Assembly: GCA_030390025.1 (NCBI GenBank)
Contig: CM059431.1
Coordinates: forward strand, 129,396,001 to 129,460,000
Length of the DNA: 64,000 bases
Direction: 5' to 3'
Origin: Squalus acanthias
Taxonomy: Eukaryota
The position numbers and the translations under genes are program-made. This document shows positions 10,654 to 50,940 of this stretch, piece by piece. The notes beneath the pieces are model-generated. The model did no database searches. It was not told the DNA's origin and worked only from the letters and a program-made list of their open reading frames with translations. Position 1 is the stretch's first letter; each line of letters begins with the position of its first letter.

Positions 10654-11720
10654 GTGCACAGCAGTGAGAAGCACAAGAAGGAGTTGCACAGGAGAGAGGG
10701 GCACAGGAGGGAGTTACACAGGAGAGAGGTGCACAGGAGGGGCCGAGGTCGCAGGAGGCACATCACAGGATTTACAGACAGAGGCTCAGCTTCCTTGATA
10801 GCAGTGCTTCCGCAGACTGAGAATGTCATGTCAGATGGTGGCAGACATCTGCATCCTCCCACATAAAGACCTGCTCCCCACTGGACCTGGTATCCACGCA
10901 TTACCAGGGGCTGTGAAAGTGACTACTGCCCTCAACTTTTTCACCTCCGGATCCTTCCAGGGCACTACCAGAGACATATCCAGGATCTCTCAGTCTGCTG
11001 CACGTATATGCATGAATGGCTTGTTGCCAGGGCAAACAATTATGTAAATTTCCCATGTGATGACAATAGCCCGAAGGAGCGGGCACTCAGATTCACCGCG
11101 CTGGCTGGATTCCCACACATACAGGGTGGCATCGACTGTACACATGTGGCAATCGGAGCACTGTCACAGCAACCAGGAGTTTTTATAAACTGCAAGGGAT
11201 ATATGTCCAGCAATACGCAGCTGGTGTACAACCACAAGAAAAGGTTCATGCAGGTCTGCGCCAGATTCCTTGGCAGCTGTCATGGTGCCTTCATACTGAG
11301 GCAGTCCAGCATCCCAGACCTTTTCATTCCAGGAAGCAGACTTACGGGCTGGCTCGTAGGAGAAAAGGGATACCCCTTTCAAACTTGGCTCATGACACCT
11401 ATGAGGAACACCCCAATGAGGTGAAGGAATGCTACAACGAGAGCCCCATGACCACCAGGTGTGTCATTGGAATGTTGAAGATGCGCTACAGGTGTTGAGA
11501 TAGGTCTGGAGGCGTCCTTCAGTACTCATCAGTGAGAGTGTCCAGAATGATAGTGGTGTGCTGCATCCCGCACAACTTTGCGCAGCACAGAAGATTGCAG
11601 GTGGAGGAGGATGAGGGAGCTCATCGCTCATCTTCAGATGAGGAGAACATAGAGGAGGAGCAGGAGGAGGATGATGATGGGGCACCCATCGCTTGACCAG
11701 CCGCTATATTGCTGCCCAGG
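10654..11720 (+). pseudogene. Decayed Harbinger transposase
   Basis: AVKVTTALNFFTSGSFQ, AGFPHIQGGIDCTHVA and GWLVGEKGYPFQTWLMTP occur across shifted frames. Confidence 0.9.
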
Positions 11721-11896
11721 AGTTCTTGTACCACACATCGACCCATTGCCCATTCGCCCAATGGGTCCCGTCATGTATTGACATTCATCATGAAACAAGT
11801 GAAAGGGCGAGTTGGCACTCGGAGTGCAATAATGGGCAAGATGTGGAAGTGGTGCAAATCAATACATTTTATGTGGCATTATAAAAAAAAGGAAAC

Positions 11897-13741
11897 TTAA
11901 CAACATAACATTTTGTCAAACGCCCATGTGCATACCCTTGGTGAATTATAATTTCTTGAACTTATGCTTCCTACCACTTCTACATGGTGCATCCTGTGTG
12001 CTTCAGCAGAGGTAGAGGCAGGCTGCTCAGATCCCTGCCCTGACTGCTGAGATGCTTTTGGCCTATGACCTCTGGGTTTTGGAGCCGCTGAGGGCCCTGC
12101 CAAAGACTGCTTCACCTGCACCTGTGCAGGGGCAAATTCGGCCATCGGGTACTGACTGAGTAGGTGGGGGGGTGGGGTGCAACAAGTGGGAAGTGGGAGC
12201 AGTTTGAGTGGAGTTCCCACTTCCATGTCTCCTATCACCATCATCCCTCTCCTGGGCCAATGCCGCATCACTTCTACTACTCTGCTGCAGACCAGATTGG
12301 TGAAAATCAGTGATGTGTGTAAGGTCGCGGATAAGGTATCCGTCATCCTGTTTAAGGTGGCAAACAAGTTAGCATCCAAAGTCTGTACAGCCATGGTCAT
12401 GGCCTGCACAGACTCATTTGAGAGCTTTGCTTGAAGCTCCATGGAGGTGTCCATTCTCTCCAAGGCAGACATTCTCATGATTCCCTGCAACACCAATCCA
12501 CTGGCGATCAAGTTGGCCTCCTGCATCCTCTCCGCTATTGTGGAGAGTGTGCGTGACACGTCTGTCAGTACCTGGTGAAGTTGCTGATGCACCTCTAGAA
12601 TTCTCCTGATCAACGATAACCCCCGGGATTCAGCATCTGTGTCCAGCTGAGCAGAGCTTGGAGAAGATTGCACCTCCTGACGTGGACTTTCCACAACTGT
12701 CCCTGTTACCAGTGTCTGCTCGTGCTCACTTGTGAGATGTGAATCATCAGGTGAAATCCCAACGAACTGTCTAAGTGGACCCACCAAAGTGCGAGTATTT
12801 GTGCTGGTGCATGGCTGTATGTCCTGTGACGGTGCACCCGCAGAAGGAATGAGGTCCTCTGACGAATCGTCCTCATGGATTCCTGCGACACTTGCTGTAC
12901 GCATGAAGGCCCTGGAAGACAAAAGAAAGGAATATGATTTAGTCGTGACAAAGTTACAGTCTTGACAATCTCCATACTCAGTCTTCTCATAGTTCAGTCA
13001 TTGAAGAAATTAAGTCAGCATATGTATGTCAGAGATATTTGTAATTCTGTCACTAGCTACCTGAGATCTCCCTGTCTCTCCATCTCCGACTGAGAGGGAT
13101 GCAGATGTAACACTTATCTCCAGGTGCTTCTTTCTCTGCATCAGTGAGCTGGACTATTTGTGATGGGCCACATCCAGCCCTTGTGTTTTGCACTGTCTTC
13201 TCCTACAAGGAGCGAAAAAAACAGACCTGTGATGTGAGTGAGTGAAGTTGAGGTATTCACCTGTGGATGCAGTGCCTTCTGTGAGGGTGACGATGAGACA
13301 GATGCATCAGATTGCATAAGGATTGAGGTGAATGGCAGTGGTGGATGGATAATTGGGGAGGTGATGATGTGCATAGAAAGTGAAGGCTAGGTGCTGCTGA
13401 ATGTTGAGTGGGTGTGAGGATTGAGGACGCTTAGGAAGACAGAGTGAAAGGTGGAAGGGGGCTTAAAGCACAGGATGTAATTGAATCAGCAAATGTACTC
13501 ACTTTTCCTGGCCTGGTTAGGCCATTAAACCACTTCTTACATTGCGTCCATGACCTGGGCACAGTGCTCTTGCTGCTCACATCCTCCATCTACCTCCAAC
13601 CACACCTTCCTGGTGAGAGCAGCAAGGTACTACCTCCCATTGCTGGGAGAAAGTATGTCCCTCCTCCTCCTGACTGCACCTAGCAGTAATTCCAGTGCCG
13701 CGTCATTGAATCTGAACCCTTGCTCTATGTCCACCATCCAT
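11897..13741 (-). pseudogene. Decayed Harbinger Myb/SANT partner gene, convergent with the 10654-11720 transposase
   Basis: Last-exon ORF 11897-12922 (QSLAGPSAAPKPRGHRP...QPASTS) resembles the C-terminus of the 19754-20733 exon. A SANT-like exon (RSWTQCKKWFNGLTR) lies near 13500-13740. Confidence 0.75.
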
Positions 13742-16929: not shown

Positions 16930-17170
16930 TGGAGGGGCTGCACAGACAGCAGAAACCATCGTTTACAGATGAAGATCTGCAGGTCACAGTCAATGGTGTG
17001 AGAACAAGGAAAACTGCCCTGTACAGTGCAAAGGAGCAGCCATCAATAACCAGAGGATCAAGCAGGCAAGGGACACCATTACACTGGCTATAAATACAGA
17101 TTCTTGTATGTGTAGAAGCTGGAAGGATATTCAAAAGGTAGTTTCTGACTTGAAGAAAAGTGCCAAGGTA
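16930..17170 (+). pseudogene. Old Myb/SANT-like exon remnant
   Basis: KPSFTDEDLQVTVNGVRTRKTALY...RSWKDIQKVVSDLKKSAK followed by a gtaag donor at the same position as in the Harbinger Myb exon 1. Confidence 0.55.
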
Positions 17171-17330
17171 AGAAATGAGGATGATTGTAAAGAATTGTAA
17201 CATGCTACATAGGGAGGCTGCCATATATGTAGGTTACCACTAATACCAATTAAGAATCATTGCAGTTGGCAGAAAAGCTTGCTTTGGAATCTTGATATAA
17301 TTAATCCAAATTTACCCAGCAACATATTAA

Positions 17331-17657
17331 TCACAGAATAGAATGTTCACAGAATCCCCACAGTGCAGATAGAGGCCATTTCGGCCCATCGAGCCTGCAC
17401 CGACACATATCCCACCCTATCCCCATAACCCCACGTATTTAATCCCCCTAACACTAAGGGTCAATTTATCATAGCCAAATCAACCTAACCCGCACATCTT
17501 TGGACTGTGGGAGGAAACCGGAGCACCCGGAGGAAACCCACACAGACACTGGGAGAATGTGCAAACTCCACACAGACAGTCACCCGAGGCCGGATTCGAA
17601 CCCGGGTCCCTGGCGCTGTGAGGCAACAGTGCTAACCACTATGCCACCGTGTTGCCC
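17331..17657 (-). mobile_element. tRNA-derived V-SINE (HE1-like)
   Basis: Near-identical to 3820-4122, with A/B boxes, V-core and a CR1-like tail. Confidence 0.92.
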
Positions 17658-18748
17658 TTTATTATAATGGTTACAAAAAGAAATGGACATGTTTGAAATT
17701 AGTGCAGGAAGTCAAAAAAGGAGAATGAAGAAAGATACAGCGGGATATGAGGGTTAGTGGGTCAAGGAAGAAAAGGGGAGAGTTGCCAGTGTGTCACCTT
17801 GCCTGCCTTGTTGAGCTTATTGAACTTCTTGCAGCACTCGTTTGCAGTCCTGGGGGGGTAAGAGATTTGGCACTCATTGCCATTGCCACCTTCCTCCAGG
17901 TGACGTGAATGACATTGCTAGCAGACTTGCTGGCATGGACACCCAGCCATCTGTGTTTCCTTATGCCAGCTTCCTCAAGGAGAGCTTACAGGTCTCTCAG
18001 TGAAATTGCGGGAGCTTCTTCTATGCCTGTATGTGTAAGGGGGCGTGTCTCAGACGGTGCTGGTGCGAGGTTAGGCCTTCGTTGCCTATACTATTGCTTG
18101 CTCTGGTCTCCGGCCAGCCTTTTTGCAATAAGCACCTGTGAGTGGTTCGACCCACTCGCCCTTACGGTTCTAACACTGGACTTAGGTGCAGGGAGCAGTA
18201 ATGCAGAGAAAAACTCAAATAGAGCCGGTTGAATAGTACGAAATGGAAATCTTTATTGCATGGCATCTAAAATCATGAAACACATGTCATAGGCGCAAAT
18301 CAAAGATAGTACAAGTATACATACATTCATAAAGCTTGGTCTATGGAAATGGAGAACACACGGCACATCGTAAAAAGGGGAACACATTGGGGTAGAAATT
18401 AGGTCGCGCCCCATTTGGGGCGCAAATATCGTCTGGACGCAAATATTAGCGCCTGGCGCTAATTATCGGCACTGACTGGAAACTTCACTTTTACCGCCCC
18501 GGGAGGTGAGTGGAGCGCTAAAGCAGGCGCTGCACACCTGTCTTAAGGCGCAAAGGCCAAGGAGTGAGGCGCTAACTCAGCGCGCGAGCGCAGCGCAGCT
18601 GCTGCCAGTTAGCGAGGGAACACAGACACACTGGCGCCGGCCACTTCTTAAAGCGGGGGGGGGGCCACTTGCTCCCCAGCCACACCCTGCTCATTGCAGC
18701 CTTGAATCTTGGCCTGGAGAGACCTGTGAATCCATTTTGCTACCAAGC

Positions 18749-20733
18749 ATGGAGAGGGTGAGAGAACGCGCTCATCGCTTCACCGAGCGGGCCTTGGATG
18801 CTCTGGTTGGCGCGGTGGAGCGCAGACGATGTATGCTCTTCCCTGAGAGTGGCAGGAGGCCTTTGCCACGCGAGTTCAGAAGAGTGTGGAGGGAGGTGGC
18901 TCAGAGCGTCTCCTCCAGGAGCATGATGCCCAGGACCCATACTCAATGCCGCAAAAAGTTCAACGACCTCACTCGGGTCGTCAGGGTGAGTGGCTTTTTC
19001 TCAATACCTCTCCATCCCTCCATCTCAACCTCACTCTATGGCCAGAGGGTCTTAAAACCCCAATGCACAACACTCATCCAACACCTATGGCCCTTTCATC
19101 AAACACACACACACATTCCACACTTTGCATACAGTAAGGGCTATTCACCTATGGGAGGCACATCAGGCAAGACCATGGCTGTATATTGTAAGGGCTATTC
19201 ACCTATGGGAGGCACATCAGGCAAGACCATGGCTGTATATTGTAAGGGCTATTCACCTATGGGAGGCACATCAGGCAAGACCATGGCTGTATATTGTAAG
19301 GGCTATTCATCTATGGGAGGCACATCAGGCAAGACCATGGCTGTATATTGTAAGGGCTATTCACCTATGGGAGGCACATCAGGCAAGACCATGGCTGTAT
19401 ATTTACTCAGATGCTGTCCTTTTTCTTGCAGGCTAAGCTGGCTCATAATAGGAGACAGCAGCAACGGACAGGTGGAGGGCAGCCTCAGCTGCAACCCCTC
19501 AGCGATCTTGAGGAGCGCGTCCACAGGATTGTGGCAAGCCGGGTGATCGGTCCCGTCGCCACTGGAGACGCCGACCCCGTTCTGGACAGCAATGGTAAGG
19601 TCATCACCTTTTTGTCCTCTGTCCTTCCACTTGTCCCTCACAACACCAGCCTTTGACACTTTCAATCCAACTTGCTAACTCGCTGCACTTATTCCTCCCT
19701 TACTGCCACCCTGTCCTCACGCTAAAGCCACTCTTGTACCTCCCTGCTTTCAGATGGTGATTCACCAGCTGAGGAGACGGGCCCTGAAGCTGCCACTGGG
19801 AGTGATGCTGCAGCTGAGGAGGAAGAGGAAGCCAGAGCATCAGTGCCACCCTCTCCCGAGGAAGCCCATGCCCACACTGGGAACACGCCTTCCCCGGAGG
19901 GGAGCAGGGGGGAAGGGGCTGATGAGGGTGAAGCTCCAGGACCCAGCGGGCTGCAGCAACGCCATGGGGGGGGTAGGGAAGAACGGGGGCCTTCCCTCCA
20001 GAGGGAGAGTATGCCAGACACTCCTACTGCAATGGACGCAGAGGAGGAGCGGCTGATCGCAGAAATGAACACCCAGGCGGTGGGCATGCACACTGAGCTC
20101 ATGGGTGCAGTGGGAAGGGTGCCCGAATGCATTGAGTCACTGGCAAGGAGTCTGGAGCACTTCGCTGTAGCACAGGCGGATGCCACACTAACGCTTAGTG
20201 CTGCAATTCAGTCACTGGCTGCCGTGATCCCATCTCTGACTGCTCTCATACAGACTCAGATTGAGGCCACGCGAGCAAAGACTGCTGCCAACCTCGATGG
20301 TTCGTGCACATGTCCCCGGGGCTGTCACCGCGCCGCAGCAGGCCAGCAATCTGTTCTCCGGCAGATTGCTCCGGATGCTGAAGTGCTGCCCCGTGGGAGT
20401 GCCAGTGTGTCGGGCGAGCAGGGAGTTGCTGGCCTCTCTCACGATGACAGCATTCCTGCTGCCAACACTGTCACTTCTCCACTGCACTTGCCACCGCCTG
20501 TAGGACAGACCGCTGCCGCCCATGCAGAGTTGGTGCAGTCTGCAGCCGGGCCCTCCAGGCCCAGAAGTGGTCGAGGCCGTCCTTCAGGGGCATCTGCAGT
20601 GTCAGGGTCTGACGAGCAGCAGCCTTCCACCAGCCTTGCTGCAGCCACTGAGGTCCCATTACGGAGGAGCAGTAGGGTTAGAAGGGGGGAAGTGCGCAAG
20701 GGAAGGAGATCACCCTCGAAGGGCAAAAAGTAG
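18749..20733 (+). CDS. Harbinger Myb/SANT-like DNA-binding protein, 3 exons (18749-18985, 19432-19594, 19754-20733), 459 aa
   Basis: Exon 1 is MERVRERAHRFTERALDALV...WREVAQ...RTHTQCRKKFNDL (trihelix/SANT). Both introns are GT-AG with pyrimidine tracts and compatible phases (0, 1). The spliced frame is open to TAG at 20731-20733. Confidence 0.88.
19134..19403 (+). repeat. 54-bp tandem repeat x5 in intron 1 of the Myb gene
   Basis: Unit gtaagggctattcacctatgggaggcacatcaggcaagaccatggctgtatatt; copies nearly identical. Confidence 0.97.
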
Positions 20734-21044
20734 GAGGTGTGACAAAATGCTGGTCATTTTTTTATTAAAGGTCGAGGTTCATGGTCCAACTTTTGTTTAG
20801 TGTTTTGGACATTATCTCCAGGTTGTGAGAACCAGTTATGTTATTGACTGTTTTTTTGTGTTTATTTCTGTGAGTTTGTCATGAGGAATTGACACACACA
20901 GAGATTGTAAAATAAATAAGTTTCTGTATTCAAAATATACATGGTTGGTGGTTGGAATTATTGGTGCCTTGGCCGGCTTAGGGGTTGCGTGCTGGGTTGA
21001 TTAATGTTGGTAGCAATGGCAGGGGCCCTAGAAGCGGCTTGCTA

Positions 21045-22184
21045 TTAGCCGTTGATGGACGGCCCTTGCAGTTTGACCATTGTGGGCCGCCCTCCTGCCT
21101 TGGTGCTGCTGATGATCATCGTCCTCGTCCTCTTCCTCCTCTCCTCCTCCTCTGGTGGTGCTCCAAGGCCTGGTGGCATTGGCTGGGTTCTGAGGATTGC
21201 CATGTTATGCAACATGCAGCACACGACTACGAAGTTCGATACTCGCTCAGGCGAGTACTGCAGGGCTCCTCCGGAATGGTCCAGACAGCGGAACCGTTGT
21301 TTCAGCACGCCGATTGTGCGCTCAATAATGTTCCTGGTTGCTTGATGGCTTTCATTGTACCGCAGCTCAGCAGGGGTGTTGGGCGTACGGAGCGGTGTCA
21401 TCAGCCAGGTGCTCAATGCATACCCCTTGTCCCCGAGAAGCCAACCAACTGGCTGATGCGGTGCCTCGAAAAGTTCTGCCACAGTAGTCTGGCGCAGGAT
21501 AAAAGCATCGTGGCAGCTGCCAGGATAGTGGGCATTGACAGCGAGTATCAGCTGTCTGTGGTCACAGACCAACTGGACATTCAAGGAATGGAACCCCTTT
21601 CTGTTCCTGAATTCCTCGGCATTCTCACGCGGAGCACGCAAAGCCACATGCGTGCAGTCAATGGCGCCCTGCACCATGGGGAAGCCCGCTACCCTCGCAA
21701 AGCCCAGAGCGCGGTCACGCTGCTTGTCTGGGGTCATAGGGAAAGAGATGAACTCTCGTCTCCTTCTGAAGAGGGCATTTGTGACCTGCCGGATGCAGCA
21801 ATGCACCGCGAACTGGGAGATATTGGTGAGGTCCCCAGCAGCAGCTTGGAATGAGCCAGTGGCGTAAAAGTTCAAAGCCACTGTGACCTTCACTGCCACC
21901 GACAGAGACGTCCTGGACCTCAGTTGAGGCTGCAGATCTGGCTGCAGCAGGTGGCAGAGCTCAGTGACCACCTCCTTGCTGAATCGCAGCCTTCGCAAAC
22001 ACAGCTCCTCGGACATATGGATGTAGGAGAGCTGTTCACGATATACCCTGGGAGGGTAAGCTCTCCTGTACATACGCCTGATGGCCCTCCTCCGTCTGGC
22101 CATCATTACCACTCTCTCTCTGCGTCTCTGTATCCTCCGATTCAGCTGGAGCAGGACGACGCCCCCAATCAGTGCAGCCCCCAT
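21045..22184 (-). CDS. Harbinger DDE transposase (HARBI1-like, DDE_Tnp_4); probable late frameshift in the acidic tail
   Basis: First ATG at 22184; motifs GAIDCTH, LGDKGY and RNIIERTIG supply D-D-E. The C-terminus seen in paralogues (ARAVHQRLIASRF*) is in another frame and ends at 21028. Confidence 0.93.
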   Translation of the reverse strand: MGAALIGGVVLLQLNRRIQRRRERVVMMARRRRAIRRMYRRAYPPRVYREQLSYIHMSEELCLRRLRFSKEVVTELCHLLQPDLQPQLRSRTSLSVAVKVTVALNFYATGSFQAAAGDLTNISQFAVHCCIRQVTNALFRRRREFISFPMTPDKQRDRALGFARVAGFPMVQGAIDCTHVALRAPRENAEEFRNRKGFHSLNVQLVCDHRQLILAVNAHYPGSCHDAFILRQTTVAELFEAPHQPVGWLLGDKGYALSTWLMTPLRTPNTPAELRYNESHQATRNIIERTIGVLKQRFRCLDHSGGALQYSPERVSNFVVVCCMLHNMAILRTQPMPPGLGAPPEEEERRKRTRTMIISSTKAGGRPTMVKLQGPSING

Positions 22185-23995
22185 ATTCTCTTTGCAAGCA
22201 AAGTAATGAGGGACAGCAACTAAAGTAGCAGCAAAGTTAGGATCAATAGGCAAAACTACCTCACAAAGCGTTGAGTCAATGTAGAAGTCTCTCTCTCTCT
22301 CTCTCCGAATCTCTCTCTCTCTCTCAGAACGAGTGGTGCATAAATGTCGACCACAGAAAAAGACAGGAAGAGGCCCCCTTTAAATAGCGCCCCCCCCCAG
22401 CCCCACAGCGATTGATAGCGTTCCAGTCTTCCGGTCGTTGGAAGCGCCAGGCGGTAAGGCAGGGGGCGCCACTCAATTTCCGCTCCGGGGCTCCACAAGG
22501 GCGTTGCACCATGGAATGACGTCACAATCTGCGCGCGCAGGTGGTAGCAGCGGTAAGTTTTAGCGCCGCCGCACAATCTCAAGTTAAGTTCTCGAGCGGC
22601 GCAAACATCGCTGCGCCCGGGCATTAGCGGCTTTGCGCCCCATTAGCGCCCTCTTAAGGCGCTAACGGGAGGCGCAACCAACTGAATTTTTACCCCATTA
22701 TCTCTTAACCTTATTTAAAACCACCCTCCCTTAACAATACCTACACTACGTCTGGATTTGTAGGATCGGAAAGCATGCTCACCACTTGTGTTACTTCGGA
22801 GATTTTAAAATGAGGCACTCAGCTCGTTTCGCTGCAGCGCCTGACTGTCACGTGTTTGGAAGGGTCTCTGCACCCCACTTGTTTACTTTCGCTGCTGCGA
22901 AAAGCAGGCCAGGCTCCCTGTTGTCATGAAGAACTCAACGGAACTCGGACACAGTTCAAAGAAGAGTCTTCCTGTGTTCGACACAGGTTGCAGTCGGTAG
23001 AACTCAAAGAAGAGTCCTGTATTTATATTTTCGGGCGCGGTCGGGGTTTACTCACCGTGGCGGCACGTGGATTTTCTTCTCGTCTTCTTCTCGTCTCGTC
23101 TCGTCGGGCCTCCGGGTCCAGACACCGTTTACCGACACTCGGGATGGTGCACCCTGTTACTTGCCCTTGTCGGGGCGGCTCGTACTGATTGAGCTCCACC
23201 CAACACTCCAATTACCGACCAGTACGGCTAAGAGTCAAGAGTCAACAAAGTCCAGAGAAACACAAAAGTCCAGCCCCAAGGAAGAGCTTCAGCAAGGGTC
23301 CGCAGAGAGATAAGAGTTCAGCAAGCGATCGAGCGAGTCAAGAGACCGATGGACATTTGTTCTCTATAGTTATAGTGCTGTGTCCACTTATCTCCTGCTC
23401 AAATCTTAATGTTTGTCCTTTGTGTAATATTTGGCGCTCAAAACTCCCAGCATGGGGCGATTATCTTCTTTAACGGGTTTCGGTAGCACCTGAAACTGGC
23501 CAACTATCCGTTAATGTTTTCCCCGTTGTTGACCCAGCCAGGATGTGTATGAATCGTCTCCTCGACTGGTTTGGGGGCCCCCCGAATACTGACTTAATCA
23601 CCCGTCAATGTCTCTCTCATTGTAGAGCCGGGGGGGCATTTGTGTATTGATGTGTCTGGATGGGCCTTCGATTGCCCAGTACAATGGTCCTTACTGTGCA
23701 TAGGAAAACGATTCCAGCACTTATATCTTTGCTATTGTTCCAAATGCAAATGGGTTGCATCCTGTCTTTATCAGTGTTTACCGAGTATGATCCAATCTTA
23801 TACTGAATGTATATTCAACGCCATTTTGTCTGCCCACTGTGTTTCTGGAAGCTTCTGCCACGATGCACGGTGGCCATTTTACAGGCTTCTGTGTCCTTTA
23901 TTATCAGGACAGCATTTCATTTAATAAAACTGATCAAACGAATCTGCTTCTCTTGTGTTATTTTGAATCGCGATAATTGCGAAACTTTACATATG

Positions 23996-24803
23996 TCATG
24001 TGAGGTTATTCACTCTGGTAGGAAGAATAGAATAGAAAAACAGAATATTTTTTAAATGGTGAGAAACTATTAAATGTTGGTGTTCAGAGAGATTTAGGTG
24101 TCCTCGTACAGGAAACAAAGAAAGTTAGCATACAGGTACAGCAAGCTATTAGGAAGGCAAATGGGATGTTGGCCTTTATTGCAAGGGTATTGGAGTACAA
24201 GAGTAAGGAAGTCTTACTACAATTACACAGGGCTTTGGTGAGACTACACCTGGAGTACTGTGCACAGTTTTGGTCTCCTTATCTGAGGAAGGATATACTT
24301 GCCTTAGAGGCGTGCAACGGAGGTTCACTAGATTGATTCCTGGGATGAGAGGGTTGGTCCTATGAGGAGAGATTGAGTAGATTGGGCCTATACTCTCTGG
24401 AGTTTAGAAGAATGAGAGGTGATCTCGCTGAAAGATATAAAATTCTGTGGGGGATTGACAGGGTAGATGCTGAGAGGTTGTTTCCCCTGGCTGGAGAGTC
24501 TAGAACTTGGGGGCATAGTCTCAGGATAAGGGGTCGGCCATTTAAGACTGAGATGAGGAGAAATTTCTTCACTCAGGGGGTTGTGAATCTTTAGAATTCT
24601 CTACCCGAAAGGGCTGTGGATGCTGAGTCGTTGAGTATATTCAAGACTGAGATTGATAGATTTTTGGACTCTCGGGGGATCACGGGTTATGGGGATCGGG
24701 CGGGAAAGTGGAGTAGAGGCCAAAGATCAGCCATGATCTTATTGAATGGCAGAGCAGGCTCGAAGGGCCATATAGCCTACTCCTGCTTCTAATTCATATG
24801 TTC
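23996..24803 (+). mobile_element. CR1 LINE 3' fragment
   Basis: CEVIHSGRKN through LGLYSLEFRRMRGDL to the 3' stem-loop tail. Confidence 0.95.
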
Positions 24804-36590: not shown

Positions 36591-36669
36591 TCTGCTCCAT
36601 TTTCTATGAAACAGTGGGGCCAATTTTAACGCATGATGGGAGGCCAGCGGGAGCAGACAATATTCCCAA

Positions 36670-39488
36670 GAGTTTGGGCGCTAATGAATCTCACTGCATG
36701 CAAAATTCATGGTCATCGCTCAAAGAAAGGATGGGAGTGCTAATTCAGGAGCTAACGGCCTAGCTCAAAGGCATTACACTCAAAGCTCTAACCAATATCA
36801 GTTGCAGTCTAATCGCAAGTCATCATTGCCACAGGCTCTTTCCAGTTTTTAAAGGGGAGTTTCATTGATGCTGCAGAACCTCATTCTCAGCATTGCTGGC
36901 TGTGAACCTGTTTCAGCAAGAAGGAGCAGGCCCAGCCCAAGGAGCTGGACAACTCAAGCAGGTTTCATGATGGCAGATCCACGCCCCAGGGAGAGAGCCT
37001 GCAGATTTTCGGACCAAGCATTGGAGGAGTTGGTGTCCGCTGTGGAGAGACGGAGGGCGATGCTCTACCTGGCAAGTGGCAGAAGGTCCTCGCCGCAAGT
37101 CTTCCATGCCATGTGGCAGGAGGTTGCCCATCAGGTCTCGGGCAGCATTGTGGTCCCCAGGACCCATACACAGTTTAGGAAGAAATTTAATGACCTCACT
37201 CAGGTGGTCAGGGTGAGACAATGCATAAACAAATGCTACATACCACCATCTGAACCACAGTCTGCACACACTGGCCAAAGCACCATACCCCCAGCACTTA
37301 CCCACCAACAATCTCTACCTACCAACACTCACACCCACATCTCCCACAATGACAGCTATTCGACTATGGCAGGCATATCACCCAAACACATTGCGACGCA
37401 CTCACTCACACACTTTCCTTTCTCTTGTAGGACAAGGTGGCTCACAACAGGAGGGAGCAGGAGCGCACAGGCAGGGGACAACCTGACACCCAACCACTGT
37501 CTGCGCTGGAAAATAGAGTGCTGGATATCAATGGGTGCCAGGTGGTGGGCGCCGTGGCCATCGGCGACATTGACCCCCTTGGGGACAACAACGGTATGTT
37601 CATCCCTACTCCTTCTTCTCACATCCCATTTCCCCCTCACCCCACAAGCCTTTCGCACTTTCCAGCTAATCATGCTGTATGCATGCATTTCTCCCTTCCT
37701 GCCCCCCTCCCCTCACCTTAACCCATCTCTTGTGCCTTTATGCTTTTAGATAATAAGCAAGCACCTGAGCAGCCTGTCCCTCAGGGCACCGTAGAGAGCG
37801 AGGTGGGAGAAGAGGAGGAGGAAGAACACACCGTGTCACTGCATGTCTCACCCGCAGACACCAGCTCAGATACTGGCACTCCGCGTTCTTTAGAGGCTAG
37901 TATAGTAGCAGGATCTGCACAGGGTGATGCACCGGGGATGAGCGGCTGCAGCAAAGCCAGGGGGAAAGGGTAGCTTGGGGGCCAGCCACCCGGAGGGCGA
38001 GTTCGCACACAAGTTCTGCTCTACAAGACTCAGATGAGGGCCTCGATGGGGAGGCCTTTAGAAGAAGGTTGATGGGCATGCATACAAAGATCATAGGTGC
38101 AATGGCAAGGATGCCCTCGAGCCTGTCAGCAATGGTAAGGAGCATGGAGGACTCTGCCTCCAACATTGCACAAAGCTTTGCGCACACCATGGAGCCTATC
38201 ATTTCCAGTCTGCAAAGGACGATAGACTCCCAGAGAGACCGTGGCGACCCAGACCTGATGTGACATGTGATGGGCGATCTGGCAGCTTCCATTGCAGCAC
38301 AGGCAGAAGCGATGCAACATCTTAGTGCTGTAATGCAGTCTATGGTTGGTGCCATTCATTCTCAGACTGCTCTCATGCAGTCTCAGCTTGATGCCACGCA
38401 AGCTCTGACTGCTAGGCCTTTGCAGTTATGGAAGATCTCTGGATTGATATGTGGTGCCTGCAAAGCCATGTGGGTGCAGTCAATGGCACCCTGCACCATG
38501 GGGATTCCCGCTATCCTGGCAAAGCCACATGCATGCTCGTCCTGCTTCTCTCTGGTGATGGGGAAGGAAATGTAGTCCCTTTTCCTACTGTAGAGAGCCT
38601 CAGTGACCTCCCGGGTGCAGCAATGGATGGCGAACTGCGAGATGTTTCCTATATCTCCTGTTGCAAACTGGAAGGATCCACTGGCGAAGTAATTGAGGGT
38701 GACGGTGACCTTGACTGCCACTGAGAGAGTCGTCTTCATCCTGATCTGAGGCTGGAGGTCTGGTTGCAGGAGGTGGCAGAGTTCTTTGACCACCTCCTTG
38801 CTGAAGCGGAGCCTTCTAATACACTGCTCCTCGCTTAATTGAAGGTAGGAGAATTGCTGTCGGAAGACCCTCAGAGGGTAAGGCCTCCTGTTGAGAGCCC
38901 TGATGGCCCTCCTCCTCCCTCTGGCCTCATGTTCCAATCTTTCTCGCTGCCTGCGCTCCCTCCGCTGTAGATCCTGGAGGGCGAGGTCGACTGGCATTAC
39001 AGCCCCCATTAATGTAAGGAAGTCCAGCACTTTGATATTTTGTGAGAATAAATGTAACTAATTTTTAGCAGCCACAACACTCCGGAGACTAAACAACCTG
39101 TAAATGACTGAATTAAGCTGTTGCACAATGTCAAACTGACAAGGAAGCAGTGAAACAGCACTAACCTGAGAGCTGCGACTCATTACTCAGCATCCCTTTA
39201 AGTAGCGCCCCTGGAGCCGGCTACCAACTGCTTCACTGTCGCTGTCGGGTGAGGCGCTAAGGCAGGAGGCGATACTCAATTTGGCAGATCGGGCGCCCAG
39301 TGAGCGTTGCACCACGATTTGCCTGGCACTGAAGTCTTCGGCGCTAACTCATAGCGGCGGCACTACGGGGGGGCCGAATTTGGCATGCGGTGCTGGATTC
39401 GCCTCACCGTGGTGCTACTGCCTCAGCGCCCCGTTAGCACCCCCGCCAGGCGCTAACTGGAGGCGCTAAGGTACCGAATTTCTCCCCC
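36670..39488 (+). mobile_element. Harbinger copy with central deletion
   Basis: Myb gene remnant 36967-38413 (+) abuts the transposase 5' half 38414-39010 (-); right end ccgaatttctccccc; left end degraded. Confidence 0.85.
38414..39010 (-). pseudogene. Harbinger transposase, N-terminal half
   Basis: RPYPLRVFRQQFSY...RLRFSKEVV...VQGAIDCTH, truncated after FHNCKG. Confidence 0.92.
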
Positions 39489-39791: not shown

Positions 39792-40461
39792 GGGGGAAAA
39801 ATTGGGTCGCTTTGCGCCTCCCGTTAACGCCCTAAGAGGGCACTAACGGGGCACAAAGCAACTAGCGCCCGGGCGCGATGCCACCCACGCCTCCCACGAA
39901 ATTCAGCGGGAAGTTAGCGGTGGCGCTGCGCCGCCGCCGATGATGTCATCGCCGTGCACAGCGCCTCGCTCGCGCCCCGGCCCCGATCTTCGGGAGCGCC
40001 CCCTGACTTACCGCCGGACGCTATGTCCGACGGGGTCAGGGGGGCCTACCTGCGGCTGGGGGGCACTATTTAAAGGTGAGGTGCGGGGCGGCCATTTTTG
40101 TTGCTGGCCGCCTGCCAGCACCTGCCTGCACTCCCTCCTGAATGCCACCCCCCTCCCACCACCCCCCCCCCCCCCACCCCGCGGAGTGCCAGCTGCGCTC
40201 CAAGAGCCCGGCACTTCTCTTGAGAGCCGGGCTCTTTTGCCGGCACTCCCGATCCCCAGAGGCCCAGCTGGGCCCCGGGTCACGCTGTGCAAGGCCTGCA
40301 ATACCGCGGCGCGACATTGACTCACAGCGCCCCTAGAGGGATGCGGGGCGCTTCCCTCTTGGGGCGCTACGACTCAATTTCTGGCGCGGTGGCGCTAATT
40401 TTTAGTTTTAGCGCCCTGGCTAAGTTAGCACCCAAATGGGGCGCTACTCAATTTTTAGCCC
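39792..40461 (-). mobile_element. Harbinger-derived MITE
   Basis: Ends gggggaaaaattgggt / ctcaatttttagccc with ttagcgcc arrays; no matching TSD. Confidence 0.8.
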
Positions 40462-40474
40462 AAAAGCTCCACTT

Positions 40475-41488
40475 GTGTAGTTAGGCAACCATTGTCAACA
40501 AATGAAGTAAAATACAGTATAAAGCTAACAGAAGAGGCTTATACAAATGCAAAGAAAAGTGGAAATCCAGCAGACTGAGAGCTATGAAAAAAAGTAACAA
40601 AGGGATACAAAGAAAGTGTTAAAGAGCTGCAAAAAGGAATACGAAAAAGTACAGGAAGAGGGCAAAATACCAGCGGTTAAAGGGAACCTAAAAATAAATC
40701 AAGGGGAGGAACTTGTTGGGAGAACAATTGGGTGGCACCCCTTTTGACGCACTAACATTAGCATCCCGAAAAAGTTAGCGCCCTTCCACCGGAAATTCTG
40801 TAGTAGCGCCCCAAGCAGGAGGTGGAGCGCTACTGGACACGCTTCACCTCCTTATTGGGGTCCTACAACTGAAGATCGCGGTGCTACGTGCAACAGCGCC
40901 ACGTGTGTCAGCACATAGCGCCGCATCATTGCAGGCCTCCTCCCCTGATTAAAGGGGAGGGGACCTAGCGCTGCGCGCACCGGGGCCCTGCTGGACCACC
41001 GCGGAGCGGGGTGCCGTGAAAACAGCCGGCACTCAAGCGGAGTGCTGGGATGAGCGATTGCGACCGGCACCCCGAGAAAAAAAGGGGAAGGGGGCAGGTG
41101 CTGGCAGTCAGCCAAAAAAAAAATGGCCGGCCAACAACTGCCCCTTTTACTAGCGCCGCCGCCGCTGCAAAAACGCCCCCTGACTGTGTCGCACATATTG
41201 TCCGGCGATAGGTCAGGGGGCGCAAGGGAAGCTTGCGGCCGGGGCGTAAGTGGGGCGCTGCGCATGGCGATGACTTCATCGCCGGTGGCGCAGCACCACA
41301 GGGCGTTACCGGTTACCGCCACCACTAACCTCCCGCTGAATTTCACGGGAGCTGTTAGCGGCGCCGTGCCCAGGCGCTTGGGGCGCTAACGAGAGGCGCA
41401 AATCAACCCAATTTTTCCCCCATTGAATTTAATACAAGTGAAAAAATAGTAATGGAAAAACTAATGAGACTTGAGGTAGACAAATCTT
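40475..41488 (+). mobile_element. Old CR1 ORF2 internal fragment interrupted by a MITE
   Basis: Degenerate matches to PWLSKEIKDSI...AYK and GEELN...LMRLEVDKS. Confidence 0.65.
40718..41421 (+). mobile_element. Harbinger-derived MITE
   Basis: Ends gggagaacaattgggt / acccaatttttccccc; imperfect TSD gtt/att. Confidence 0.8.
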
Positions 41489-41489: not shown

Positions 41490-44400
41490 CAGCACCTTGC
41501 TGTCAATGACCGCTATCCTGGCAGCAGCCACGACGCTTTTATCCTGCGCCAGACTGGTGTCCCAGACCTCTTCCAACCACCGTGTCAACCTAGTGGATGG
41601 CTCCTCGGGGACAAGGGTTATCCACTCTGCACCTGGCTGATAAGACCGCTCTGTAACCCCAACACTCCTGCTGAGCTCCAATACAATGAGAGCCATAGCG
41701 CCACCAGGAACCTCATTGAGCAGACGATCGGCATCTTGAAACAACGGTTCCGGTGTCTTGAGCATGCTGGAGGAGCCCTGCAGTACTCTCCCAAGTGAGT
41801 CTCGCTTTTCATTGTTGTGTGCTGCATGCTTCACAACCTTGCAATTATGAGGACCCAGCCATTGCCACCAGGGATTGGTGCACCACCTCAGGAGGAGAAA
41901 GAGGGAGAGGTGGAGGAGGAGGAGGAGGCAGAGGAGGAGGAGGAGGAAGTGGAGGATCAGCAGCACCAACGTGGGAGGGAGGCGTACAATGTTGCCACTG
42001 CAAGGGCCGTCCATGAACGCCTGATAAGACACCGCTTCTGACGAATTACAGAGAAGATGGCTTCTGGGATGAAGAAGCACATCATCGCAAGCATCTCGCA
42101 GCAATTATTGCTGGGCAAAGCTCCAACGAGTCAAATCAGCAAAGATGTAAAGTAACAATAACAAATTTTATTTATATTACAAACAATTAGAAACAAACCC
42201 AACAATTCATAAACTAACAAAACTTGTTCTCACAACATCGACATAAACGTCAAAACAGTAAACAAATATATTGGCCCAAAAATTCGTGAGGCAGCCTTCG
42301 TGCGAGGGTAAGGCTTCCCCGCGATCTCTCACTGCGCGTTGGCTTTTTCAGTTCCAGCTCGCACGAACTTGATGTTCTGGACAGCTGCTGTGCTGGGCTT
42401 GCGTATCCTACAGGCGCAGTTAATTCGTGCGAGCTGTGGGATCACATGACTCAGTTAGAGCCAATGGCAGCACACCATCTTCCATTCATAACTTTCACAT
42501 AAGTGCTGTGAAAGCTATGAATACTATAGCCCCCCAAAAGAACAGCTAAACCTCAATTAAATTTTTTTTAAAAACCATCACATTAATAAAATAAGTATAG
42601 TTAAATAAATTAACCATTTTAAATAAAAAATTAAATTTTTGAAAAAATTTAAAATCTTTTAATAAGTTATAAAAATAAACTTACCTGTCTTTAAAGTCTC
42701 TAAAAAAGATATACCTGTTAAAAAAAATTCAAAATAATACTTAATTCACTACTTACCTTGTTAAAAGTGGGTCTTACTCCTCCTTTTTTTATGTGTAAAA
42801 TCTTCCATACTTACCTGCGCGTTGAAACCACTAAGTGCACTGCATGCGCGCAGCCTGTAGCGCGCACGCGGTTCACCTAGGAACCGCCCCCTTTTCCATT
42901 CACCAAGTGCCGGTTTTCAGCGCATGCGCAGTGCATGCAGAAAACCGGCAATTGGAGACAGAATACGCGAGAGTACACAGTGCGTACTCTCGCGTATCAA
43001 CACAAATTTTTGGGCCATTAAGATGAACATCAAACTTTCCCACAAATATTTGCCCCATTTATTAATAATTTTAACTTATTCACCCTTCGAAAGTGACCTC
43101 CATCCCTTGCGCACTTCCCCCCCTCTCACCCTACTGCTCCTCCATAATGTGGCCTCAGTGGCTGCAGCAAGGCTGGCGGAAGGCTGCTAAATGTTGGATC
43201 CAGAGACTGCTGATGACCTTGAAGGGCGCCCTCGACCAGCTCTGGGCCTGGAGGGCTTGGCTGCAGACTGCACCAACTCTGCATGGGCGGCAACAGTCTG
43301 GGCTGGCTGTGTTGAAGGCCATGGGAAGTGCAATGGGGAAGTGGCAATGGTTGAAGCAAAAATGCTGTCATCCTGAGAGAGGGCAGCACCTTCCTGCTCG
43401 ACCGACACACTGCCACTCCCCCGGGGCAGCACCTCAGCATCCAGAGCAATCTGCTGAAGCACAGATTGCTGGCCTGCTGCGGTACCGTCAGATCCCCGGT
43501 GGACTGTGGGCGACCCAGCGAGGATGGCAGCAGTCAGCGCTTGCGTGATATCAATCTGAGACTGCATGAGAACAGTCTGAGACTGGATGGCACCAGCCAA
43601 TGACTCGATTGCAGCACTAAGCTGTTGCGTTGCCTCGGCCTGGGCTGCAATAGATCCTGCCACCTCACCCATTACATGTGCATGGGCTCTGGGTCCCCAC
43701 GGACTCCCTGCAATTCAACCATCCTCTGCAACAAGGCAAGGATGGGTTCAAGGGTTTGCGCACAGATGACAGCTGTGTTAGCGACGGACTCCTCCATGCT
43801 CCTAGCCAGTGCATCCATGCTGTCGGGCACCCTTGCCATTGCACCCATGAGCTCACTGTGCATGCTCAAGGCCTGCGTATTCATGGCCGCGATGTGGAGG
43901 TCCTCATCCGAGTCCTGTGCAGCAGAACTCGTGTGCCTACTCACCCTTCAGGGAGATGGCCCCCAAGCTTCCCTTCCCCCATGGCGTTGCTACAGCCCGC
44001 TGGGTCCAGGAGCTTCACCCACATCAGACCATACCCCCTGCTCACCTCCAGTGACCGCGTGGCCCCAGTGTCGGAAGTGTCACCCTCGGGAGATGCAGGC
44101 GGTGAGGCTCCAGCTTCCTCTTCCTCTGGTGCGTCGCTGCCACTGGCAGGCTGAGGGGCAGGCTGGTCAGCTGGTGGTTCACTATCTGAAAGCAGGAAGG
44201 TACAAGAGTGGCTTTAGCGTGAGGGCAGGGGGGCAGGAAGGGAGCAAGGACTAGAGACAGTTAGTTAGATTGAAAGTGTAAAAGGCTGGTGTTGTGAGGG
44301 GAAGTGGTATGAGAGAGGAGAGAAAGCTATTGAGCATACCATTGCTGTCCCCAAGGGGGTCGACCTCTCCACTGGCCACGGCGCCTATGACCTGGCTCGC

Positions 44401-45312
44401 AATCAGTCTGCGGACTCTGTCCTCCAATTCAGTGAGGGGGTGTAGGTCCGCCTGCCCTCCTCCCGTCCACTGGGTCTCTCGTCGGTTATGTGAAAGCTTG
44501 GCCTGCGAGAAAAAAGACAGCGTGTGAGTGAGTGTGCAGCCATGTGTTTGGCAGATGTGCCTACCATAGTTGAATAGCCATTAATGTCTGCAAGGTGTGA
44601 GATGTGCAAGTGAGTTTTATGAGATGGTCATAGTTGTTGGATGAGTGTTGGGCATTTGGGTATTTACACCGTCTGGGCACAGAGTGACGTTGAAATGGTG
44701 GGATGTAGAGGTATTGAAAAGCAGGTACTCACCCTGACCACCCGAGTGAGGTCCTTGAACTTCTTCCGACATGAAATATGTGTCCTCGCCACCAGGCTCC
44801 TTGATGACATGTGCTGGGCCACCTCCCTCCACACTCTTCGAAACTCCCGGGGCAATGGCCTCCTGCCACTCTCTGGAAGAGCACTGCCCGTCGCCGTTCA
44901 ACAGCGCCAACCAGAGCCACCAATGCCTGGTCGCTAAAGCGCTGAGCTCTCTCCCTGGGCCTATCCATCACTACTTTAAGCACAATGGTGGTTAGGTGTT
45001 TGCAGGCCGAGATTCAAGGCTGCAATGAGCAGAGTGTGGCTGGACAGCAAGATGGCCCCTCCCCTTTAAGAACTAGATGGCGCCAGTCTGTCTGAGTTCC
45101 ATGGTAATTGGCATCACCTGAGCTTTGGTAGCGTTCTGAGGTAGTGCCTCACTCCCCGACGTTAGCGCCTTAAGAGAGATGTGTACCGCTTGATTTAGCA
45201 CTCAAATCACCTCCAGGGGCAATGGAGGCGAATTTTGCGGTCGGCGGCGATAATTAGCGCCGGGCGCTAAACTTTGCGCCTGGCCGAATGGGTGATATCC
45301 AATTTTTCCCCC
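41490..45312 (-). mobile_element. Truncated Harbinger (inverted): Myb pseudogene about 43070-44968 (-) and transposase 3' half 41490-42041 (+)
   Basis: TIR ccaatttttccccc near 45299-45312; MDRPRERAQRFSDQALVALVG; CCMLHNLAIMRTQP...RLIRHRF; frameshifts and stops present. Confidence 0.9.
42273..43016. mobile_element. MITE with AT-rich core (744 bp), Harbinger-type
   Basis: TIRs ggcccaaaaattcgtg / cacaaatttttgggcc; ATT TSD (42270-42272, 43017-43019). Confidence 0.92.
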
Positions 45313-47988: not shown

Positions 47989-50940
47989 TCATGTCCAAAT
48001 TCCTGCCCGCTCCCCGTAACCCTTAATGCCCTTTACTTCTAGGAAACTGTCTATTTCTGTTTTAAATTTAATTAATGTTGTAGCTTCTACAGCTTTTTGT
48101 GGCAGCATATTCCATGGACCTACCACCCTCTGAGTGAAGTAGTTCCTCCTCATCTCAGTTTTGAAAGAGCAGCCCCTTATTCTAAGACTATGTCCCCTAG
48201 TTCTCGTCTCACCCGTCATCGGGAACATCCTCCCCGCATCCACCCGATCCAACCCCTTCACAATCTTATATGTTTCAATAAGATCGCCTCTCATTCTTCT
48301 GAACTCCAATGAGTAGAGTCCCAATCTACCCAACCTCTCCTCATATGACCACCCCCTCATCCCCGGGATTAACCGAGTGAACCTTTTTTGCACTGCCTCG
48401 AGAGCAAGGATGTCTTTCCTTAAGTAAGGACACCAAAACTGTATGCAGTATTCCAGGTGCGGTCTCACCAATACCTTGTACAACTGAAGCAATACCTCCC
48501 TATTTTTATATTCTATCCCCCTAGCAATGAAAGCCAACATTCCATTTGCCTTCTTAATCACTTGCTGCACCTGCATACTAACCTTTTGAGTTTCGTGCAC
48601 CAGGACCCCCAGATCCCTTTGCACTTCAGTACTCTCCAGTTTCTTGCCATTAAGATAATAAATTGCTCTAGGATTTTTCCTGCCAAAGTGCATCACCTCA
48701 CACTTTCCAGTGTTGTATTCCATCTGCCAAATCTCTGCCCACTTACTTAGCCTGTCTATGTCCCCTTGCAGGTTTTTTATGTCCTCCTCACTCACTACTT
48801 TCCCTCCCATCTTTGTATCATCTGCAAATTTTGATATGTTACACTTGGTCCCTTCCTCCAAATCGTTAATATAGATTGTGAAGAGTTGGGGACCCAGCAC
48901 TGACCCCTGTGGAACACCACTAGTTACTGATTGCCAGTCTGAGAATGAACCATTTATCCCAACTCTTTGCTTTCTGTTAGATAGCCAATCCTCTATCCAT
49001 GCCAGAATATTACCCCCAATCCCGTGATTTTTTACCTTAAGCAATAATCTTTTGTGTGGCACCTTGTCAAATGCCTTTTGGAAGTCTAAATACACTACGT
49101 CCACTGGTTCCCCTTTATCCACTCTATATGTTACTTCCTCAAAGAACTCCAGCAAATTTGTCAAACATGACTTCCCCTTCGTAAAACCATGCTGACTTTG
49201 TCCTATTAAATTATGATTATCCAAATGTCCTGTTACTGTTTCCTTAATAATGGACTCCAAAATTTTACCTACCACAGATGTTAGGCTAACCGGTCTATAG
49301 TTACCAGCCTTCTGTCTACTGCCCTTTTTAAATAAGGGTGTTACATTAGCAGTTTTCCAGTCTGCCGGGACCTTAGCGGAATCCAGGGAGTTTTGAAAAA
49401 TTATTACCAATGCATCTACAATCCCTACCGCCACTTCCTTCAAGACTCTAGGATGTAAGCCATCAGGTCCAGGTGATTTATCCGCCTTGAGTCCCATTAT
49501 TTTACCGAGTACCACTTCCTTAGTGATTTTGATCGTGTTTAGCTCCTCTCCCCCTATAGCCCCCTGTTTGTCCAGTGTTGGGATATTCTTAGTGTCCTCT
49601 ACTGTAAAGACTGATACAAAATATTCATTCAGTGTTTTTGCCATCTCCATATTTCCCACCATTAATTTCCCGGTCTCATCCTCTAAGGGACCAACATTTA
49701 CTTTAGCCACCCTTTTTCTTTTTATATAACTATAAAAACTCTTACTATCTGTTTTTATATTTTTTGCTAATTTACTTTCATAATCTATCTTCCCTTTCTT
49801 AATCAATCTTTTTGTTATTTTTTGCTGCCTTTTAAAGTTTTCCCAATCCTCTGTCCTCCCACTAGATTTCGCTACCTTATATGCCCTTGTTTTTAGTCGA
49901 ATACTATCCTTAATTTCTTTACTTAGCCACGGATGACTGTCCTTTCTTTTACACCCTTTTCTTTTCAGTGGAATATATTTTTTTTGGAAGTTGTAAAATA
50001 ACTCCTTGAATGTACACCACTGATCATGTGTCGTCTTACCCTTTAATCTATTTTCCCAATCCACTCTACTCAATTCCGCTCGCATACCTTCATAGTCTCC
50101 TTTATTCAAGCTTAGCACGCTTGTTTGAGATCCAACCTTCTCACCCTCTAATTGAATATGGAATTCAACCATGTTATGGTCACTCATTCCAAGGGGATCC
50201 TTTACTAGGACATTTTTAATTAATCCTGTCTCGTTACACAGGACCAGATCTAAGGTTGCTTGCCCCCTGGTCGGTTCAGTTACATACTGCTCAAGAAACC
50301 CATCCCTAATACACTCAATGAACTCATCCTCAAGGCAGCCCTGCCCCATTTGATTTGTCCAATTAATATGATAGTTAAAATCCCCCATAATTATAGATGT
50401 TCCCTTATTATATGCCTCAACTATTTCCTGATTGATACTCCGTCCAATAGAGTTGCAACTGTTCGGAGGCCTATAGACTACGCCCACTAATGTTTTTTTC
50501 CCCTTATTATTCCTTATCTCCACCCAAACTGTTTCATTATCATGATTTTTTGACCCAATATCATTACTCTGTATTACAGTGATTCCTTCCTTTATTAACA
50601 TAGCCACCCCACCTCCCCTTCCTTCCTGCCTGTCCTTCCTGATCGTTAAATAACCTGGTATGTTTAATTCCCAGGCATTGTCACCCTGCAGCCATGTTTC
50701 TGTAATGGCCACAATATCATAACCATATGTAGTTATTTGTGCCATTAACTCGTCTATTTTGTTACGAATGCTACGTGCATTCAGATAGAGAACTTTCAAA
50801 TATGCTTTGTGGCACTTAGTTCCTGCTTTTTCACTTTTTACCAGTTTACCTTTTACTCCACACACTCTGTCCCTTCCTGCCACGCTCTGATTTGTGATTC
50901 CCCTACTGCTACCTATGTCTATGACCCTCTCTGTTGTCAT
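47989..50940 (-). CDS. CR1 ORF2: AP endonuclease and reverse transcriptase, 983 aa
   Basis: YLNARS, ITETWL, GDFN and SDH (APE); LDFQKAFDKV, GVPQGSVLGP and FADDTK (RT); no stops. Confidence 0.97.
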   Translation of the reverse strand: MTTERVIDIGSSRGITNQSVAGRDRVCGVKGKLVKSEKAGTKCHKAYLKVLYLNARSIRNKIDELMAQITTYGYDIVAITETWLQGDNAWELNIPGYLTIRKDRQEGRGGGVAMLIKEGITVIQSNDIGSKNHDNETVWVEIRNNKGKKTLVGVVYRPPNSCNSIGRSINQEIVEAYNKGTSIIMGDFNYHINWTNQMGQGCLEDEFIECIRDGFLEQYVTEPTRGQATLDLVLCNETGLIKNVLVKDPLGMSDHNMVEFHIQLEGEKVGSQTSVLSLNKGDYEGMRAELSRVDWENRLKGKTTHDQWCTFKELFYNFQKKYIPLKRKGCKRKDSHPWLSKEIKDSIRLKTRAYKVAKSSGRTEDWENFKRQQKITKRLIKKGKIDYESKLAKNIKTDSKSFYSYIKRKRVAKVNVGPLEDETGKLMVGNMEMAKTLNEYFVSVFTVEDTKNIPTLDKQGAIGGEELNTIKITKEVVLGKIMGLKADKSPGPDGLHPRVLKEVAVGIVDALVIIFQNSLDSAKVPADWKTANVTPLFKKGSRQKAGNYRPVSLTSVVGKILESIIKETVTGHLDNHNLIGQSQHGFTKGKSCLTNLLEFFEEVTYRVDKGEPVDVVYLDFQKAFDKVPHKRLLLKVKNHGIGGNILAWIEDWLSNRKQRVGINGSFSDWQSVTSGVPQGSVLGPQLFTIYINDLEEGTKCNISKFADDTKMGGKVVSEEDIKNLQGDIDRLSKWAEIWQMEYNTGKCEVMHFGRKNPRAIYYLNGKKLESTEVQRDLGVLVHETQKVSMQVQQVIKKANGMLAFIARGIEYKNREVLLQLYKVLVRPHLEYCIQFWCPYLRKDILALEAVQKRFTRLIPGMRGWSYEERLGRLGLYSLEFRRMRGDLIETYKIVKGLDRVDAGRMFPMTGETRTRGHSLRIRGCSFKTEMRRNYFTQRVVGPWNMLPQKAVEATTLIKFKTEIDSFLEVKGIKGYGERAGIWT

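Follow-up and report, generated by a model that had tools for sequence, protein, structure and literature searches.

A 64,000-nucleotide stretch of the Squalus acanthias genome (GenBank assembly GCA_030390025.1, contig CM059431.1, positions 129,396,001 to 129,460,000), hereafter the window, carries at 18389-22696 an element that an initial annotation described as a near-intact, recently active two-component Harbinger system. The question raised by this locus is whether the copy could still move by itself. Its two-component nature stands, with a DDE_Tnp_4 transposase and a Myb/SANT partner encoded between terminal inverted repeats (TIRs); the term near-intact does not, as it overlooked a frameshift in the transposase tail. 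The locus is probably a full-length copy of an abundant shark family of two-gene PIF/Harbinger elements, with a frameshifted transposase that would leave it unable to move unaided and with ends that intact relatives could mobilise.

The transposase and its displaced tail

The transposase matches DDE_Tnp_4 (E 7e-40) and retains D176, D226, D252 and E288, which presumably include the catalytic triad. Its homologs listed number 120, mostly shark and ray models, the best of which is 70% identical, and just two strongly conserved columns differ in this copy. The open frame with D-D-E motifs that had been reported is thus sound at these residues but not at its end. Beyond the conserved CCMLHN motif, one G is lost from a GAG repeat near 21140 and the reading frame shifts, so that the acidic tract and terminal helix that end at 21028 lie in another frame than the 379-aa open reading frame (ORF). 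The six best homologs have this acidic tract and end in such a helix, and in homolog P0001 AlphaFold models it with a predicted local distance difference test (pLDDT) score of 87-94, following a low-confidence linker. In the copy at 41496-42039 the tail follows without a change of frame, and 11 of its last 14 residues are identical to those of the stranded frame. The transposase therefore appears to be open only because the slip exchanges the conserved terminal helix for another tail. Two intact ORFs define a potentially active family (Han et al. 2015); here the assembled transposase tail is frameshifted, and this copy falls outside that definition.

The partner gene

The two genes of the element are convergent. 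Three plus-strand ORF pieces join at 18985/19432 and 19594/19754, both through GT-AG introns, into the single open frame of 459 aa that had been proposed; among eight alternative GT-AG combinations within a few bases, two remain open (459 and 457 aa). The proposed layout also holds, from a Myb/SANT N-terminus in exon 1 (Myb_DNA-bind_5, PF13873, E 1.3e-8) through an acidic linker and a helix to a basic tail that is a candidate nuclear import signal.

Splicing was examined in the read contigs of four of 21 sequencing runs (X1 and X8, DNA; X15 and X16, RNA-like), with X19 and X20 (0.05 share) and the raw-read X21 left out. A single contig of X15 (depth 264) and a single contig of X16 (depth 52) contain the intron-2 joint, which is absent from X1 and X8. 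Splicing of intron 1 is inferred from its splice sites, kept in two other copies, and from the shark gene models P0123, P0126 and P0131, which are joined at the same place in the alignment; its donor is read through by contigs of X15 and X16. X15 contigs carry the alternative letter at sites where this copy is nearly private, and the transcripts therefore come from other copies. A 54-bp array within intron 1, overlooked in the initial annotation, has five units that are 99% identical, and depth dips there in X1, X15 and X8; the array either expanded locally not long ago or is an artefact of assembly.

Exon 3 is most likely coding, because the spliced joint reaches it, its stop is kept in a second copy, and it has 12 homologs. 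These were found by a full phmmer search among 1.84 billion proteins, a word-indexed protein search having returned nothing, and all belong to Pristiophorus (sawshark), Heptranchias (sevengill) and Heterodontus (horn shark). The suggestion of a lineage-specific C-terminus is accordingly upheld at the level of sharks (12 of 12 matches), but the region is not special to this family. AlphaFold folds exon 3 as one helix over exon-3 residues 90-182, with pLDDT above 90 over most of the block (13-row alignment, predicted template modelling score 0.32). The C-terminal helix of ~90 aa is common to three shark orders. A block of 134-135 nt (45 codons) is missing from the helix in the copies at 18389 and 59815, present in two older copies and partly present in homologs; contigs cross the site without a gap, and its deletion therefore belongs to the family. 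The modelled helix appears to be shark-wide and tolerant of change, with a likely role in oligomerisation or as a scaffold. A predicted complex of transposase residues 1-340 with the exon-3 helix, for which alignments were not used, scored 0.00 and counts neither way.

Other searches with the partner were less productive. Exon 1, used as a query for longer proteins, gave one match among 162 candidates, and pairwise alignments of exon 3 to P0121 (E 0.06) and to the ORF at 11900-12997 of the window (E 0.001 over 50 residues) were both too weak to be used. An Atlas search gave low recognition, with NAIF1 and Myb neighbours at 0.78 serving as a lead only. Two gene models carry pieces of the partner in other contexts: in the sawshark model P0122, RING, B-box and PML coiled-coil domains are fused to partner exons 2-3, and the sevengill V-set Ig model P0132 starts with an exon-3 piece. 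These fusions are either exonisations or gene-model artefacts.

Ends and target site

Both TIRs reported earlier are confirmed, with a core of 12 bp that is complementary at 11 of 12 positions. The chance of a bare match between 3-bp target-site duplications (TSDs) is ~0.016. The exact ATT duplication is nevertheless real, because host-repeat contigs join across the element: in X15 the joint 18384>22696, at which four letters fit either side, leaves a single ATT, and near-equivalent joints at 18388>22716 are found in all four runs compared. The element interrupts a host repeat that is itself multicopy.

The motif GGCGCWAA is present five times in each terminal 300 bp and is absent from the 3.7-kb body; two of the left-end motifs make a 17-bp palindrome at 18446-18462. 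The window contains 44 occurrences against 2.3 expected, mostly at related ends, an enrichment that is post hoc, as the motif was chosen by eye from these same ends. The repeats are likely binding sites of the Myb/SANT partner, a role proposed by analogy with Harbinger3_DR, whose partner binds a subterminal motif of 9 bp (PMC9710019).

Four complete end pairs in the window have exact 3-bp duplications (TAT, ATT, ATT and TTT), and their flanks fit the pattern A-N-N-Y / R-N-N-T at six of eight half-sites; four insertion sites are too few to define a target group. At GAACAC-ATT-ATCTCT, the site of this copy, nine of 12 flank letters agree with the Harbinger3_DR target, an agreement reached by 0.06% of the 15-mers in the window; the other three sites agree at five to seven letters.

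Abundance, age and selection

About 20% of the 64-kb window matches the element. The X1 contigs aligned to the locus number 34,819, and summed depth has a median of 16,000-fold over one flank contig (range 2,500-35,000), a ratio that takes the flank contig as single-copy and gives no copy number. The family likely has thousands of copies. A set of 7,734 contigs at 99% identity or more was considered as young copies and rejected, most of the contigs being short.

This copy differs from the deep contigs at 26 of 1911 sites in X8 (1.36%), 23 of 1459 in X16 (1.58%) and 30 of 1480 in X15 (2.03%), a count that leaves out one overlapping contig each of X16 and X8 as well as low-depth contigs. The deep contigs bear the same letters in organisms A, B and C, and the copy has letters absent from 97-100% of the family depth, including five non-synonymous and two synonymous partner sites among those listed. 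As expected, these near-private letters fit neutral decay after insertion. Shark mutation rates have been put at 1.93e-8 per 11-year generation (PMC12358869) and at 7e-10 per generation (PMC10587355); the copy would be 8-12 million years old at the former and 19-29 million generations old at the latter. The family was thus called recently active with some justice, but only in relative terms: at 1.4-2.0% divergence from the deepest contigs, its amplification would date back millions of years.

In comparison with the copy at 59815, the transposase has a ratio of non-synonymous to synonymous substitution rates (dN/dS) of 0.29 (p 2e-12), exon 1 of 0.36, exon 2 of 0.39, exon 3 of 0.84 and the helix of 1.03; in comparison with the copy at 45312, the ratios of exons 1, 2 and 3 are 0.16, 0.25 and 0.73. 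As measured by these sequence comparisons, purifying selection has acted between copies on the Myb exons and the transposase. Among the segregating sites listed (40 of 287), six of seven in the transposase and four of 13 in exon 3 are synonymous (p 0.057). Synonymous divergence is lower in exon 3 than in the transposase at p 0.01 against one copy and p 0.3 against the other; because the deficit is significant against one copy only, no claim of an overlapping function in exon 3 is made. A transposase dN/dS of 0.59 against a presumed copy, c3, was discarded together with the c3 values beyond 21545, since 39792-41421 is a separate element that had been misaligned.

Alternative explanations

Several observations weigh against the reading of a frameshifted copy from a two-gene family. 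A profile of homolog tails favours the stranded tail (E 1e-6) over the tail of the ORF (E 0.007), with a score that is mostly composition bias (11.1 of 16.4 bits), and a regular expression for the terminal helix matched 29 of 73 motif-bearing homologs and failed to match the stranded tail. A slip in this tract also occurs in the copy at 59815, which is back in frame 20 nt later, and the slip is therefore perhaps shared or recurrent. Since a single G is lost in a repeat, an assembly error is plausible, and the read-contig comparison leaves out 21099-21165, slip included. That the transposase needs its terminal helix for activity is itself an assumption. As to the partner, the exon-3 dN/dS values are not significant and show no purifying selection on that exon; the intron-2 joint has only 19 and 29 letters on its short sides (fewer than 31) in its single contig per run; and it is a guess that X15 and X16 are RNA. 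The initial annotation had proposed RNA mapping across both junctions; the RNA-like contigs give the joint at 19594/19754, and none at 18985/19432 is among the 15 joints listed of 55. With these points taken into account, the slip most likely is a private mutation, an assembly error or a shared slip being the alternatives.

Full competence of the copy, with the slip as an assembly error or the terminal helix as dispensable, is doubtful, although it survives better than the other rivals. It is favoured by the nature of the slip, a one-base change in a repeat outside the compared region, and by two frames that are otherwise open, with two strongly conserved transposase columns differing. Set against this are the conservation and confident modelling of the terminal helix, and the many near-private letters, including the five non-synonymous ones in the partner, at which RNA contigs show the other letter.

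A second possibility, that the slipped basic tail is the normal end of the family's transposase, draws on the slip in the copy at 59815, but that copy returns to the canonical frame, and the stranded frame of the present copy is undecayed, with its stop kept and the 11 of 14 residues noted above. This makes it very unlikely.

At about the same low level of credence stands horizontal transfer between distant hosts as the source of the sharing among organisms A-G, in place of inheritance in slowly evolving relatives. At least 0.5 of the sampled words are present in 15 of the 21 runs under seven organism labels, as expected at the divergence of 1.4-2.0%, the same letters recur in the deep contigs of A, B and C, and transfer has been reported for Harbingers (PMC8437027, PMC9179366). 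However, shark rates are low (PMC10587355), the same runs share the host repeat and would thus be close relatives, and the best outside protein matches are just 70% identical.

Domestication of the partner gene at this locus, as in the NAIF1 or MSANTD genes, can be set aside almost entirely: the 459-codon frame is open, but at 1.5% divergence this needs no selection, the element keeps intact TIRs and an intact TSD, its family has a high copy number, and the near-private changes are mostly non-synonymous (five of seven), with RNA contigs carrying the letters of other copies.

Features of the element and its surroundings

Coordinates of the features within the window (strand given as a point where none applies)
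Feature	Position	Strand	Basis or remark
Host repeat, left part (approximate limits)	18080-18385	.	Contig depth and empty-site joints
Left target-site duplication ATT	18386-18388	.	Sequence and empty-site joints
Whole element	18389-22696		Flanked by ATT on either side
Left TIR GGGGTAGAAATT	18389-18400	+	Same end type at 927, 39792 and 59815
Five GGCGCWAA subterminal motifs, left end	18419-18575	.	Candidate partner binding sites
Partner exon 1, Myb/SANT trihelix	18749-18985	+	PF13873
Intron 1, GT-AG	18986-19431	+	Splicing inferred from homology
Tandem array of 5 x 54 bp within intron 1	19134-19403	+	Single unit in copy at 59815
Partner exon 2, conserved extension of Myb domain	19432-19594	+	dN/dS, homolog alignment
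Intron 2, GT-AG, spliced in family transcripts	19595-19753	+	Joints in RNA-like runs
Partner exon 3: acidic linker, long helix, low-complexity region, basic tail, TAG	19754-20733	+	
Predicted continuous helix, residues ~224-316	20023-20301	+	AlphaFold; lacks 135-nt block near 20165
Canonical transposase tail (acidic tract, terminal helix, TAG), stranded in other frame	21028-21140	-	
Transposase ORF, 379 aa; last ~30 aa in wrong frame	21045-22184	-	DDE_Tnp_4
Frame slip inside GAG-repeat acidic tract	21136-21152	-	Sequence, copy comparison
Five GGCGCWAA subterminal motifs, right end	22560-22665	.	Motif count
Right TIR, end AATTTTTACCCC up to 22696	22685-22696	-	Sequence
Right target-site duplication ATT	22697-22699	.	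Site GAACAC-ATT-ATCTCT
Host repeat, right part (approximate limits)	22700-23300	.	Contig depth and empty-site joints

The host repeat (~18080-18388 and 22700-23300) has a high copy number and great depth in the RNA-like runs. It may be a solo long terminal repeat, to judge from a TATA-like site on the minus strand near 23020 and a site resembling a poly(A) signal near 18252. An Rfam scan of 17000-24500 gave no match.

Related elements are spread through the window. The copy at 59815-63887 is a broken full-length one of a related subfamily, 80-81% identical, and decayed copies of related subfamilies lie at ~41496-45312 and ~36600-39488, both of which keep the 135-nt helix block. An internally deleted relative of 893 bp (927-1819) has a TAT TSD and is inserted in a TATGACTC repeat; the sequence before that repeat we take to be a CR1 end. 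At 39792-41421 lies a separate element of 1.63 kb, whose inverted ends are long and imperfect; it has an ATT TSD and, inside it at 40461, a further Harbinger-like end. A more distant Harbinger at ~10800-13730 consists of transposase remnants (45%) and a partner exon of 366 codons with a similar layout. The minus strand holds an open frame of 1004 aa at 47989-51003, by eye presumably a CR1-type long interspersed nuclear element (LINE) with endonuclease and reverse transcriptase.

Proposed mechanism and significance

By analogy with Harbinger3_DR, the partner would bind the GGCGCWAA repeats at both ends through its Myb/SANT domain (PMC2836001, PMC9710019, PMC9392472), and would also bind the transposase and bring it into the nucleus. 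The transposase would cut at the GGGG ends, and insertion would follow into an all-A/T triplet within an A-N-N-Y / R-N-N-T flank. To such a system the copy at 18389-22696 would supply ends and a partner frame, with a transposase that lacks the canonical tail. The family would have amplified millions of years ago, the copy gathering neutral changes since.

For a Harbinger of sharks, the family provides a gene structure, candidate sites of partner binding and a rule of target choice. Searches of the PDB by sequence and by fold gave no PIF/Harbinger transposase at E 0.001, and an intact member would for that reason be useful for structural work, as well as for gene transfer; this copy is not that member. 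The proposal of a reconstruction candidate can be kept for the family, but not for the copy, and a vertebrate element, Harbinger3_DR, has already been reconstructed.

Comparison with known systems

The reconstruction of zebrafish Harbinger3_DR is reportedly that of Sinzelle et al. 2008. It is documented in several papers (PMC2836001, PMC3016246, PMC9710019, PMC9392472), and the element at 18389-22696 is an ordinary member of this known kind. The broad PIF/Harbinger (PHIS) features that sequence can show are present: a DDE_Tnp_4 transposase with its acidic residues, a second gene with a Myb/SANT domain, and TIRs with a 3-bp TSD. PHIS target groups include strict PIF/Harbinger (TWA), NuwaI/NuwaII (CWG or C|TNA|G) and Pangu (ANT, with a second ORF without known motif) (PMC4482050). 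Among the four complete pairs in the window, none has a TWA TSD and none a Nuwa target; two have an ANT TSD, and the second ORF here carries a Myb domain, unlike that of Pangu. Nor does the locus have the marks of a domesticated gene, namely single copy, absence of TIRs and purifying selection at the locus.

It is conceivable, but rather improbable, that the family represents a shark group of Harbingers not described before. Such a group would follow a target rule of its own, an all-A/T triplet in a palindromic flank like that of Harbinger3_DR, outside the six published PHIS target groups; its partner would be a coiled-coil protein specific to sharks, and fully intact, still-mobile copies would exist elsewhere in the genome. 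It would then be a vertebrate transposon of two proteins that is active in its native state and inserts under the guidance of sequence, and its clade would also have given rise to several host genes of sharks and rays. In excerpts of the literature on Harbingers in sharks and elasmobranchs, no description of the family was found, Dfam and Repbase lying outside the search; elephant shark was reported to lack Harbingers, other cartilaginous fish being still to be examined (PMC9179366), and a shark genome paper records Harbinger only as a repeat class (PMC12498223).

Like Harbinger3_DR, the shark family combines a transposase with a Myb-like partner, a short repeated subterminal motif and a 3-bp duplication in a palindromic flank. 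The Harbinger3_DR target is AAACAC-CWG-GTCTTT, whereas the central triplets here are ATT, ATT, TAT and TTT, not CWG. Unlike that system, the shark family has a 459-aa partner with a ~90-aa helix whose sequence relatives are found only in sharks. Harbinger-Snek of sea kraits is likewise a vertebrate Harbinger of high copy number; its copies are full-length, deleted or short and non-autonomous, and its coding regions are covered by transcripts (PMC8437027).

Shark and ray RefSeq models named putative nuclease HARBI1 and uncharacterized or myb-related protein (P0001-P0133) are unnamed transposon copies or domesticated genes of other species. Their transposases are at most 70% identical, and the alignment of the partner model P0123 spans residues 11-456 at 37%, with exons joined at the same places; the helix is shorter in the family at 18389-22696. 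In a tree built from database homologs, HARBI1-like proteins of different shark and ray species fall together on short branches in at least five sets (P0004/P0005; P0010/P0013; P0039/P0042; P0022/P0028/P0064; P0014/P0016/P0017/P0018/P0025). Several 90% clusters span different orders, and D-D-E residues are altered; these sets are likely elasmobranch-specific domesticated Harbinger transposases. HARBI1, NAIF1 and MSANTD1-4 share the domain types PF13359 and PF13873 with the present element, but they are fixed host genes, whereas 18389-22696 is a TIR-bounded multicopy element (PMC9392472).

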